64,000 bases of DNA, taken from contig NZ_JBEKYX010000005.1 in the NCBI RefSeq assembly GCF_049510455.1, positions 12,045 to 76,044 on the forward strand, read 5' to 3'. Made by a program: the position numbers and the translations under genes. This document shows, one piece after another, positions 54,938-60,051 of the stretch (position 1 is its first letter; each line of letters opens with the position of its first letter). The notes under the pieces were generated by a model. That model did not search any database and had not been told where the DNA came from. It saw only the letters and a list, made by a program, of their open reading frames with translations. Source of the DNA: Terracidiphilus sp. (GTDB taxonomy: Bacteria; Acidobacteriota; Terriglobia; Terriglobales; Acidobacteriaceae).

Positions 54938-57013
54938 ATGATGCAAGGGACGAACGGCTTTGCTCTTCAAACAGCTGCATCTGGAATCACGCAGCTTTTG
55001 TGGCTGATTCCGGCCATACCAATGGTAGCTGCGGGCGTGATTGCTCTACTGAAACAGCCTGCACGGAAGCTTGCCGCAACGCTGGCCATTGGCTCGCTTG
55101 CGCTTTCGCTGCTTCTTGCGCTGGTTGCATTTAGTCATGTGCTCTCCGGCTGGACGAGCGGTCATAACGTTCGCGAGACAGCGAACTTTACCTGGTTGCA
55201 ATTCGGTACATCTACGGTCGATCTTGGCTGGGTCCTCGATCCGCTCTCCGCCGTGATGTTGGTGATGGTGACCTTCGTCGGTCTGCTCATCGTTATCTAC
55301 TCGACTGGCTACATGGCGCATGACGAAAACTTCACGCGGTTCTTCTGCTTTCTCTCGCTCTTTGCCGGTGCCATGCTCGGCGTGGTCATTGCGAACAGCC
55401 TGTTGCTATTGTTCATGTGCTGGGAACTGGTTGGCCTCACTTCGTATCTGCTGATCGGGTTCTGGTATCAGAAACCCTCCGCTGCCGCGGCTGCCAAGAA
55501 GGCGTTTCTGACTACACGGGTGGGAGATATTTTCTTCCTGCTTGGCATTGTGTGGCTCTTTGCGCAGACGGGAACGCTGCTTTTCTATAACAGCGGCGCG
55601 GGTTCAATGGAGCCTGCAGCTCTGAACGGCTTGCTGGCAGCACCGGCTGCGTTGGGACTGAGTGCGGCTACAGTGATCGGGCTGCTGATCTTTGCTGGCG
55701 CAGCCGGCAAAAGCGGCCAATTGCCGCTGCATGTGTGGCTGCCGGATGCGATGGAAGGTCCGACGCCTGTCTCTGCGTTGATTCACGCAGCGACGATGGT
55801 AGCTGCGGGCGTGTATTTAATCGCACGTGTTTACCCGCTGATGCAGGCAGGCACGCCGGCGGGCGGAATAACAACGGCGCTGACCGTGGTGACATGGGTG
55901 GGCGCAGCTACCGCGGTCTTTGCCGCGCTTATCGCCGTGGCTCAGGATGACATCAAGCGCATTCTGGCTTACTCTACGGTCTCACAGCTTGGGTACATGA
56001 TGGCTGGACTTGGATTAGGCGGCGTGGCGGTGGGCATGTTCCATCTGATTACGCATGCGTTCTTCAAGGCGCTCTTGTTTATGGGCGCGGGATCGGTGAT
56101 CCATGGCGTACATGAGGAGCAGGATGTGCGCAAGATGGGCGGCCTGCGGAAGGCGATGCCGCTCACGTTTGCGACATACGCGATTGGTATGCTTGCGCTG
56201 AGCGGATTCCCGATCGTCTTCTCTGGTTTTTGGAGCAAGGATGGAATTCTGGCGGCTGCGAAGGATGCGCATTTCAGCAGAGGACCGTTTTATCTGCTGG
56301 TGTTTGGCGCGGTCCTGACGGCGTTTTATATGACGCGCCAGGTTAGCTATGTCTTCTTTGGCAAGTGGCGTGGACATGGCCATGCGCATGAGAGCCCGGC
56401 AGTGATGACCGCACCGCTCGCTATTCTTGCCTTTTTTGCGATTGCGCTGGGTGTGATTGGGACGCCGGCGTGGCCGTGGTTCCGGAGTTTTCTCGAAGGG
56501 CATGCGGCTGCAATTGAGTTTGGGAAGTTTGGCGAATCAGAATTTCTAGTGTTGCTTCTGACCTCAACGTTAATTGTGCTCGTGGGGCTTGGGTTCGGTT
56601 GGCTACTGTATGGTTCGAAGTCGCCTGCGCCGGAAGAACGCGACGTGCTGGAAAAGGCCGTGCCACCGGTTTGGGCTGCACTGCGCAACCGCTTGTACGT
56701 GGATGAGTTTTATGGTGTGACGTTCATCGCGTTCTACAAATGGTGGGCGGAGGTTGCAGATTGGCTCGACCGGCGTGTATGGGGCGGGATTGTAGCGCTG
56801 GTGATATGGGTATTTGGCCGGCTGGCCCACTTCGATCGCTTCTTTGACAACGAATGGGTGAACGGTGGCTTTGACAAGGGCTGCGAGGAGCTTTACTCAG
56901 GCGGCGGTCTGCTGGCTCGCGTGCAGTCCGGACGCACGCAAACCTATCTGCGGCTGCTTGCTGTTGCCGTTGTTGTGCTGGCAGTCATTCTGATCTGGAG
57001 CAGCCGCCCATGA
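54938..57013 (+). CDS. nuoL: NADH-quinone oxidoreductase subunit L (long form, 691 aa)
   Basis: LPLHVWLPDAMEGPTPVSALIHAATMVAAGVYL motif, plus a long C-terminal segment before the last TM. Confidence 0.9.
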   Translation: MMQGTNGFALQTAASGITQLLWLIPAIPMVAAGVIALLKQPARKLAATLAIGSLALSLLLALVAFSHVLSGWTSGHNVRETANFTWLQFGTSTVDLGWVLDPLSAVMLVMVTFVGLLIVIYSTGYMAHDENFTRFFCFLSLFAGAMLGVVIANSLLLLFMCWELVGLTSYLLIGFWYQKPSAAAAAKKAFLTTRVGDIFFLLGIVWLFAQTGTLLFYNSGAGSMEPAALNGLLAAPAALGLSAATVIGLLIFAGAAGKSGQLPLHVWLPDAMEGPTPVSALIHAATMVAAGVYLIARVYPLMQAGTPAGGITTALTVVTWVGAATAVFAALIAVAQDDIKRILAYSTVSQLGYMMAGLGLGGVAVGMFHLITHAFFKALLFMGAGSVIHGVHEEQDVRKMGGLRKAMPLTFATYAIGMLALSGFPIVFSGFWSKDGILAAAKDAHFSRGPFYLLVFGAVLTAFYMTRQVSYVFFGKWRGHGHAHESPAVMTAPLAILAFFAIALGVIGTPAWPWFRSFLEGHAAAIEFGKFGESEFLVLLLTSTLIVLVGLGFGWLLYGSKSPAPEERDVLEKAVPPVWAALRNRLYVDEFYGVTFIAFYKWWAEVADWLDRRVWGGIVALVIWVFGRLAHFDRFFDNEWVNGGFDKGCEELYSGGGLLARVQSGRTQTYLRLLAVAVVVLAVILIWSSRP

Positions 57014-58548: not shown

Positions 58549-60051
58549 ATGCTTGCCTGGACGATTTATCTCTCATTTGCCGGCGCGTTAGTTGAGGCTC
58601 TGCTGCCCAAGGGCAAGCCTGCGCTTGCGCGCGCAGTGGCTCTCGTGGTGGCATTGGCCGGGCTTGTAATTGCGATTTGTGGATTTGCCGGCGGCGCGGG
58701 TCAAGGGCGCGTGGTGCTGGTGGACACGCCGTGGGTGCCTGCAATGGGGATTCATTACACTCTGGCGGCGGATGGAATCAGCCGCGTGCTGGTGCTGCTG
58801 ACCGGACTGGCTGCTGTGGCTGGCGTGCTGTTCAGTTGGAATATCGAGCTGAGGACGAATGAGTTTTTTGCGTTTTTCCTGGCGCTGATTGGCGGTGTGT
58901 ACGGCGTATTTCTAAGCTTCGACCTGTTCCTGCTGTTTGTGTTCTATGAGATCGCAATTGTGCCGAAGTATTTTTTGATTGCGATCTGGGGTTCGACACG
59001 GCGGGAGTACGCCGCGATGAAGCTGGCGCTTTATTCGTTTGCCGGCTCGGCAATGGTGCTGATCGGACTGCTGGCCGCGTATGCGATGGCAGGCAGCCAT
59101 TCGACGGGGATTGTCGAGTTGGGCCATGCGGCGCTGCCGGTGAGCTTTCAAATGTGGGCGTTTCCGCTGGTGTTTGTGGGATTCGCAATTCTGGCCGGTA
59201 TGTGGCCATTCCACACATGGGCGCCGACTGGTCACGTAGCTGCGCCGACTGCAGCTTCGATGCTGCTGGCCGGCGTGGTCATGAAGCTGGGTGCATACGG
59301 GTGCCTGCGTGTGGCGATGGGATTGTTCCCGCACGGTATGGACCCGTGGGGCTTCGGCTTTCTCGGCATTGGATCGTGGCGAGATGTTTTTGCTGTGCTG
59401 GCGGTGATTGGGATTATTTATGGTGCGCTGGTGGCGCTGGTGCAGACGGATTTCAAATTTGTCATTGGCTACTCGAGCGTGAGTCACATGGGATTTGTGC
59501 TGCTGGGGTTGATGACGTTGAACCAGATTGGCGTGACGGGCGCGGTGCTGCAGATGTTTTCGCACGGCGTGCTTGCGGGACTGCTGTTCGGCATTGTGGG
59601 GCGGATTGTGTACGAGCGAACGCACACGCGGCAACTGGCGGAACTGGAGACGATGCACCTTTCAAAGCGGCTGCCGTTTGCGGCGTGGGGATTCGCGATT
59701 GCGGGCATCGCTTCGATGGGATTGCCAGGTTTTTCGGGGTTTGTGGCGGAGTTGCAGGTGCTTGTCGGGTCATGGAAAGCCGATCCGTGGTGGACTGCTG
59801 CGGCCGGCGTTGGCATCGTGATCGGTGTTGCGTACACGTGGCGAGCATTGCAGAAGGCATTCTTCAGCGATGCGCCGTCTATGGCGCACACTCATGAGCA
59901 TGGACACGAGCTGGCTGCGATTACGTGGCCCGAGGTGACGGGATTTACGTTGCTGGCGGCGACGAGTCTGCTGGTGGGCTTGTGGCCGCGGGTACTGCTG
60001 GATTCGATTGAGCCGGCGGTGAAAGCGCTGCTTGCGGGAGGTGCGCAATGA
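58549..60051 (+). CDS. nuoM: Second NuoM-type antiporter-like subunit (copy 2)
   Basis: [36 protein letters not shown] and [11 protein letters not shown]. The pattern is M-type rather than N-type. Confidence 0.8.
   Translation: [500 protein letters not shown]

Follow-up and report, generated by a model that had tools for sequence, protein, structure and literature searches.

A nuo operon with two nuoM genes

We analysed a stretch of 64,000 nucleotides from Terracidiphilus sp. (NCBI RefSeq assembly GCF_049510455.1, contig NZ_JBEKYX010000005.1, positions 12,045 to 76,044 of the forward strand), called the window below, and focused on a complex I (nuo) operon that carries two nuoM genes. The operon spans 49511-61610 on the + strand, and its 12 closely packed open reading frames (ORFs) follow the order nuoA-B-C-D-I-H-J-K-L-M1-M2-N. 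The genes were named by Pfam and NCBIfam profile matches. The original prediction had placed two M-type genes between nuoL and nuoN, and both ORFs were found there and passed the NuoM profile. The first, M1 (57010..58542, +), encodes 510 amino acids (aa), and the second, M2 (58549..60051, +), encodes 500 aa. The preceding gene, nuoL (54938..57013, +, 691 aa), matched NCBIfam NF005141 with 639 bits against a cut-off of 556. The following gene, nuoN (60048..61610, +, 520 aa), reached 328 bits with TIGR01770, slightly below the cut-off of 332.6, and its best matches were NuoN models. The three peptide motifs quoted in that prediction were all present in the translations.

The junctions between these four genes were tight. 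nuoL and M1 overlapped by 4 nt, M1 and M2 were separated by a gap of 6 nt, and M2 and nuoN overlapped by 4 nt. As read from the sequence, such spacing is typical of a single complex whose subunits are translationally coupled.

Related loci were collected by a genome scan with one genome per species. The scan gave more than 596 matching stretches, and the best 80 loci were retained. In tblastn searches with E. coli queries, NuoE, NuoF and NuoG were absent from the 64-kb window and from the best 80 loci, which were searched together with flanks of up to 10 kb per side, although a copy may lie elsewhere in the genome. The operon was therefore of the NuoEFG-less (11-subunit) type, in which the membrane and Q-module genes stand with no NuoE, NuoF or NuoG alongside. 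In addition, two NuoM-family genes lay in one nuo cluster and adjoined both nuoL and nuoN, which is the arrangement that marks 2M complex I. The operon is one more orthologous instance of this design, which is already known.

Both copies belong to the NuoM family

With the NCBIfam model TIGR01972 (NDH_I_M), which has a curated cut-off of 263.8 bits, M1 scored 432 bits and M2 scored 427 bits. The NuoN profile gave 168 bits for M1, and for M2 NuoN was absent from the 25 best families listed. The MrpD models gave about 160 bits or less. The NuoM profile outscored the NuoN, NuoL and MrpD profiles for both copies, which placed both in the NuoM/ND4 family. The closest solved-structure relatives of M1 and M2 in the Protein Data Bank (PDB) were NuoM/ND4 chains only. 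M2 was 95% identical to a Terracidiphilus gabretensis protein.

It was considered whether 58549-60051 could belong to a separate Mrp-type antiporter or another complex, or could be a decaying duplicate. M2 was rejected as an MrpD/Mrp-antiporter subunit because the MrpD models fell far under the NuoM model (at most ~160 bits against 427) and because its neighbours are nuo genes, with M2 lying inside the operon and overlapping nuoN. It was rejected as a NuoN by its NuoM profile score. It was rejected as a decaying duplicate by a ratio of nonsynonymous to synonymous substitution rates (dN/dS) of 0.046, and M2 was 54-96% identical across two phyla. This explanation is hardly credible. The original prediction depended on the second copy grouping with NuoM and not with NuoN or MrpD, and on this point it held by profile, by PDB relatives and by a neighbour-joining tree.

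M1 and M2 shared 31% identity over ~494 residues and are therefore divergent paralogues. That they are not a recent duplication, as had been proposed, was borne out by this identity and by their separate clades in the tree described below.

M1, M2 and NuoN were aligned with NuoM and NuoN from the E. coli K-12 genome to map the key residues, and the E. coli NuoM residue numbers were used as confirmed in PMC9271201. E144 in transmembrane helix (TM) 5 corresponded to E141 in M1 and E134 in M2. K265 in TM8 corresponded to K262 and K246, H322 to H319 and H313, H348 to H357 and H339, and E407 in TM12 to E417 and E401, respectively. K234 in TM7 corresponded to K231 in M1 and to L215 in M2. M1 kept all six tested residues of the canonical set, and M2 kept five of the six, with the TM7 Lys alone missing. 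Neither copy was stripped of its conserved charges, and the claim of two intact M subunits passed this check as well.

The codon of M2 Leu215 lies at 59191..59193 (+). The alignment at this site was ungapped, with the PFHTW motif as the anchor, and the aligned motif included FAVKMPVVPLHGW. The ion pair between the TM5 Glu and the TM7 Lys (E144/K234 in E. coli) was present in M1 (E141/K231) and was missing in M2 (E134/Leu215). At the TM12 site, M1 and M2 both carried the M-specific Glu (E417 and E401), in contrast to the Lys in NuoN (K434). The other key residues of NuoN were E138, K221 and K251.

Conservation of the two-M operon

The best 80 loci were titled Acidobacteriaceae or Verrucomicrobiota, except for a few implausibly labelled bins of metagenome-assembled genomes (MAGs). 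The order A-B-C-D-I-H-J-K-L-M1-M2-N was found in most of those that were long enough to show it. Some Verrucomicrobiota loci began at nuoH, and in several Chthoniobacterales ones A-B-C-D-I sat elsewhere. M1 and M2 were found together in about 70 genomes from two phyla. In three Verrucomicrobiota loci (L052, L057 and L074, around 10001-13200), M2-nuoN stood alone, and nuoL and M1 were absent within 10 kb on either strand. The break of the operon in these loci fell exactly between M1 and M2.

All six tested positions of M2, Leu215 included, were invariant in 120/120 close homologues, and Leu occupied the TM7 site in 78/78 orthologues. The key residues were invariant in 71 M1, 78 M2, 70 NuoN and 63 NuoL orthologues, and the sole exception was an alternation of D and E at NuoL D400. 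The relative L088, with 95% protein identity, was used as the reference for dN/dS. The values were 0.048 for M1 and 0.046 for M2, compared with 0.041 for nuoH and 0.049 for nuoD. Both M1 and M2 are under strong purifying selection, like the core subunits.

Five records titled Bifidobacterium sp., Acetobacteraceae, Klebsiella pneumoniae and Akkermansia muciniphila (L030, L032, L033, L041 and L071) also carried 2M operons. These operons were of the Acidobacteria/Verrucomicrobia type, with 58-67% identity to the M2 of the window, and the records are probably mislabelled or contaminated MAG bins.

A lateral-helix insertion in NuoL

NuoL of the window has 691 aa, compared with 613 in E. coli, and an NCBI protein entry for NuoL of Terracidiphilus sp. 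matched it with 100% identity. The residues matching E. coli D178, K229, H254, K342, K399 and D400 were retained, as checked in 63 orthologues. The spacing between TM15 and TM16 was ~34-36 residues longer. We aligned the two-M NuoLs with E. coli NuoL and with four NuoLs from one-M operons, and this alignment defined an insertion of 26 residues in the C-terminal part of the lateral helix HL. The insertion corresponds to aa 626-651 (nt 56813..56890, +) and reads FGRLAHFDRFFDNEWVNGGFDKGCEE, as confirmed by translation. Its alignment columns held 26-27 residues in 63/63 full-length two-M NuoLs. They held no residues in E. coli and in 3/4 one-M NuoLs, and the 7 residues seen in Moorella came from alignment slippage. 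The two-M NuoLs also had a smaller insertion of 6-9 residues ahead of TM15. In an AlphaFold2 model of NuoL (mean predicted local distance difference test score, pLDDT, of 70), a helix ran from 590 to 641 and TM16 from 666 to 687. If helical, 26 residues at 1.5 A each would span about 39 A.

An insertion of 26 amino acids has been reported for the NuoL of the Nitrospira 2M enzyme (PMC9040806), and a lengthened NuoL is listed as a hallmark of the 2M type (PMC6606698). The insertion in the window matches the reported Nitrospira one in length and position, and the HL insertion of about 26 residues that marks 2M complex I was thus found here.

This insertion also bears on how the two copies are used. 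M1 and M2 could be alternative subunits, giving two kinds of three-module complex with one copy in each. Cyanobacteria swap NdhD/NdhF paralogues and form different NDH-1 complexes in this way. The copies of the window are very divergent (31% identity), they carry Lys in M1 and Leu in M2 at the mechanistically important TM7 site, and M2-type proteins serve as the only M in other lineages, all of which would suit such a use. However, the 26-residue insertion tracked the two-M state, with 63/63 two-M NuoLs against none in E. coli or in the four one-M NuoLs, and it weighs against alternative subunits because a three-module enzyme would have no use for it. M1 and M2 also lie next to each other in one operon with coupled translation, and about 70 genomes of two phyla carry both, whereas alternative NDH-1 subunits usually lie at separate, separately regulated loci. 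We regard alternative use of the two copies as very unlikely.

Origin of the two copies

The full library was searched with M2, and the hits were typed by residue. This gave a group of NuoM proteins in which L, I, F, S or W replaced the TM7 Lys. Across the class the replacement was Leu in almost all sequences. These Lys-less proteins formed one clade in the neighbour-joining tree, with 78% support (300 bootstraps). A profile built from distant M2-type members retrieved 119 proteins, and 119/119 were Lys-less. They came from Moorella, Clostridium pasteurianum, cable bacteria, Rhodopirellula, Bdellovibrionaceae, SAR324 and Anaerolineae.

In four gene contexts, the Lys-less protein was the sole NuoM of an 11-gene NuoEFG-less operon with the order A-B-C-D-H-I-J-K-L-M-N. 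Its gene lies at 10001-11530 in Moorella thermoacetica (L083), at 10001-11512 in Ca. Electronema (L084), at 10001-11515 in Rhodopirellula (L085) and at 10001-11545 in Bdellovibrionaceae (L087). A Chloroflexota contig showed L-M-N. M2 of the window was 40-45% identical to the sole-NuoM Lys-less proteins, and M1 was 31-34% identical to them. The M1 orthologues formed their own clade (73% support), which was sister to the Lys-less clade in 0/300 bootstraps.

Because M2 groups with the sole NuoMs and the M1 clade is never sister to them, M2 is, by these trees, the NuoM native to the 11-subunit class without NuoEFG and the orthologue of its single NuoM. M1 is an addition that descends separately and carries the canonical residues, and it is not a local tandem duplicate of M2. 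The original prediction had labelled the second copy M'. Its two M genes stood, and the label was turned around: the second copy is the native one and the first is the addition. The M1 of one Verrucomicrobiia MAG (L047, upstream of 10001) grouped with canonical Lys-containing NuoM, apart from the other M1 orthologues, and was 47% identical to the M1 of the window. This hints that the added M may have been replaced, or may have been acquired more than once.

Since the entire clade of M2-type proteins, the sole-M enzymes included, is without the TM7 Lys, the missing Lys of M2 is best read as a trait of a subclass, and neither as decay nor as exclusion from the NuoM family. We searched for class-specific charged changes that could compensate for the lost Lys, and the Arg at M2 R432 was the only one. 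Mutations at K234 of E. coli NuoM are reported to reduce activity severely. In a review, the TM12, TM8 and TM7/TM5 sites are counted as "a minimum necessary" (PMC10212512).

These observations raised the question of whether M2 pumps. Both copies could be incorporated while one of them does not pump. The Lys-less M2 would be the likelier of the two, serving as a spacer or relay, and the ratio of H+ to electrons would then be that of a three-module enzyme. The missing TM7 Lys, which belongs to the minimum set of sites in that review (PMC10212512), would fit such a role. On the other hand, widespread 11-subunit enzymes have this type of Lys-less M as their only one, and it is presumably a working module there. 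In addition, the TM5 Glu, the TM8 Lys, both His and the TM12 Glu of M2 were invariant, and its dN/dS was as low as that of the core subunits. A non-pumping copy is unlikely.

We tentatively put forward a broader possibility, which we hold to be rather doubtful. The native NuoM of the large NuoEFG-less class, M2 included, may work without the TM7 Lys. Its TM5 Glu might then form a pair with the TM12 Lys of the adjoining NuoN subunit, and the 2M enzyme would be a chimera in which a canonical M was recruited to join a Lys-less one. If this is true and has not already been described, the Lys-less enzymes would allow the 'domino' and 'electrostatic wave' models of proton pumping to be tested in natural variants. 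The absence of the TM7 Lys across the class is something that current mechanistic models would need to accommodate.

Proposed membrane arm and electron input

Taken together, these results suggested that the operon likely encodes a complex I-type quinone oxidoreductase that lacks the N-module and has four antiporter-like subunits, probably ordered N-M2-M1-L, with a yield of ~5 H+ per 2 e-. Such an enzyme would be without the NADH-oxidising N-module, and its membrane arm would run N-M2-M1-L from the quinone site. M1 would be inserted between M2 and NuoL, and the lateral helix of NuoL, longer by 26 residues, would still clamp the longer arm. With one proton pumped per antiporter-like subunit, the enzyme would move about five protons per electron pair and not four. 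In reverse operation, more proton-motive force would be spent per electron pair. Joint incorporation, the physical order and the stoichiometry are what we infer from the features described here, as is a donor of low potential, for example ferredoxin.

The order N-M2-M1-L is suggested by the gene order and by an electrostatic argument. In this order, the first interface would set N, with its TM12 Lys, against M2, with a TM5 Glu and no Lys, as in the one-M relatives. The second would set the TM12 Glu of M2 against the Glu/Lys pair of M1, like a normal M|L interface, and the third would set the TM12 Glu of M1 against L, as is normal for M and L. The reverse order of the two M subunits would leave a TM12 Glu facing the Lys-less TM5 Glu. 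N-M2-M1-L is favoured because all its interface charge types already occur in nature. The isolated M2-nuoN pairs in the three Verrucomicrobiota loci would also fit M2-N and L-M1 as neighbouring pairs.

The electron donor was considered from energetics and from neighbouring genes. Acidobacteriaceae use menaquinone, and the ~250 mV between NADH and menaquinone would not suffice for five protons. With a donor near -450 mV the span to menaquinone would be ~380 mV, or ~73 kJ per 2 e-, which is near what five protons cost at 150 mV. Since the cost of five protons exceeds the span from NADH to menaquinone, a low-potential donor is favoured. Ferredoxin has been proposed as the donor for the Nitrospira 2M enzyme (PMC6606698), and by analogy with that enzyme it is a reasonable guess here.

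In two one-M operons, redox genes immediately preceded nuoA. The Bdellovibrionaceae operon (L087) has a gene for a 94-aa 4Fe-4S ferredoxin there, at 2355-2639. In Rhodopirellula (L085, 1-2325), FAD_binding_6/DHODB_Fe-S_bind and Fer4_20/Pyr_redox_2 genes were found, which by their domains are read as GltD/NfnAB-like. These genes are possible clues to a ferredoxin-linked donor for the class.

Several points weigh against the four-module enzyme. M2 is without the TM7 Lys, a residue in the minimum set of the models (PMC10212512). The pLDDT of the NuoL model was below 50 at 636-668, which is the second half of the insertion, so that no continuous helix was shown. The trees were neighbour-joining trees with moderate support (0.73-0.78). 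No conserved accessory or electron-input gene flanked the operon in the window and the related loci. Finally, that both copies sit in one complex and that the stoichiometry is changed is what we infer from sequence data.

Remaining operon genes and neighbouring genes

The Q-module and the proximal membrane subunits are encoded ahead of nuoL, all on the + strand. nuoA (49511..49882) encodes 123 aa and matched Pfam PF00507 with an E value of 2e-29. nuoB (49798..50487; Pfam PF01058) has a longest ORF of 229 aa. Its true start is probably the GTG near 49873, as judged from its orthologues, which measure 202-213 aa, and this start would give ~204 aa. The Cys motifs of cluster N2 (CCxxE, GxCxxxGG and GCPP) were all found in NuoB. 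nuoC (50460..51155; Pfam PF00329) may start at its second Met, at 50487. nuoD (51152..52309, 385 aa) matched Pfam PF00346 with an E value of 4e-93. nuoI (52320..52934, 204 aa) encodes the 2x[4Fe-4S] subunit, with Pfam Fer4_7/Fer4 matches and two CxxCxxCxxxCP motifs. The C-terminal tail of NuoI, ~45 residues, was of low complexity and rich in Ala, Lys and Glu. nuoH (52931..54106, 391 aa) matched Pfam PF00146 with an E value of 1e-111, and it was followed by nuoJ (54128..54625; Pfam PF00499) and nuoK (54622..54933; Pfam PF00420). NuoB, NuoD and NuoI held the usual cluster and quinone-site motifs. The order D-I-H in the window (51152-54106) differed from the order D-H-I in the one-M relatives (L083, L085 and L087). 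Promoter and terminator scans across the operon gave sites that were no more frequent than in shuffled sequence, and the scans were therefore uninformative on the operon boundaries.

The genes that flank the operon in the window recurred beside it in the closest relative (L088) only. Upstream of nuoA, the product of a divergent gene at 46639-49170 (-) has 843 aa, TPR repeats and a cytochrome c554-like domain. Downstream of nuoN, a BBP2/OmpL-like beta-barrel porin gene lies at 61671-63350 (-). In L088, the c554/TPR and porin genes also adjoin the operon, and succinate dehydrogenase genes then follow. Further upstream in the window, we found a gene with a REase-ARP domain (restriction endonuclease associated with ARP) at 45386-46642 (+), a HAMP histidine kinase with an OmpR-type response regulator at 43367-45495 (-), and a TonB-dependent receptor with a carboxypeptidase-regulatory-like domain at 39828-42686 (-). 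No link between these three loci and the nuo operon was seen.

Comparison with known systems

The 2M complex I was described by Chadwick, Hemp, Fischer and Orphan in 2018 (ISME J 12:2668), and it is considered here as far as that work is represented in PMC6606698, PMC9040806 and PMC7117926. The original prediction had already held that the concept is not new, and its attribution to Chadwick et al. agreed with the accounts in PMC6606698 and PMC9040806. In these accounts, the system shares with the window a second nuoM between nuoL and nuoN and a NuoL HL insertion of ~26 residues. It also shares the absence of NuoE and NuoF from the cluster and the proposal of a fourth pumping module. The design is published already, and the instance in the window itself adds little. 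What was added by the analysis of the window is the distinction between the native and the added copy, the exact position of the NuoL insertion and the class-wide absence of the TM7 Lys in NuoM.

A fourth pumping module changes the energy stored per electron pair. It is thermodynamically sensible only if the redox span is large, as it would be with a low-potential donor, or in reverse operation. This bears on energy conservation in abundant soil Acidobacteria and Verrucomicrobia.

The closest described system by taxonomy is that of Acidobacterium capsulatum 161, for which an 'unusual complex I with duplicated nuoM' of the Chadwick type was reported to be transcribed (PMC11636273, 2024). This strain belongs to the Acidobacteriaceae like the window, although to another genus, and a canonical nuoA-N complex I is present in the same genome (PMC11636273). 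That paper presents expression data only, without residue, NuoL or phylogenetic analysis, and its system is likened here to the window by description. The clade-3 2M clusters of Nitrospira were reported without nuoH and with an enlarged nuoG homologue (PMC6606698), whereas nuoH was present and nuoG was absent in the window.

The 11-subunit NuoEFG-less operons (L083, L084, L085 and L087) have the subunit set of the window minus M1, and their single NuoM belongs to the clade of M2. They differ from the window in having one M, a NuoL of 624-660 aa without the 26-residue insertion, and the order D-H-I. The canonical 14-subunit complex I (E. coli NuoA-N; T. thermophilus Nqo1-14) has homologous Q-module and membrane subunits, and its charged axis was kept in L, M1 and N of the window. 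However, it has three antiporter-like subunits, a NuoEFG module and a NuoM with the TM7 Lys K234.

More than three pumping modules are also known from the rhizobial 'green' complex I and from Complex_I_3 of Ca. Manganitrophaceae, with four and five modules (PMC9040806). In these enzymes the extra modules are MrpD-like and replace NuoL, in contrast to the window, where NuoL is normal apart from its insertion and the extra module is a NuoM.

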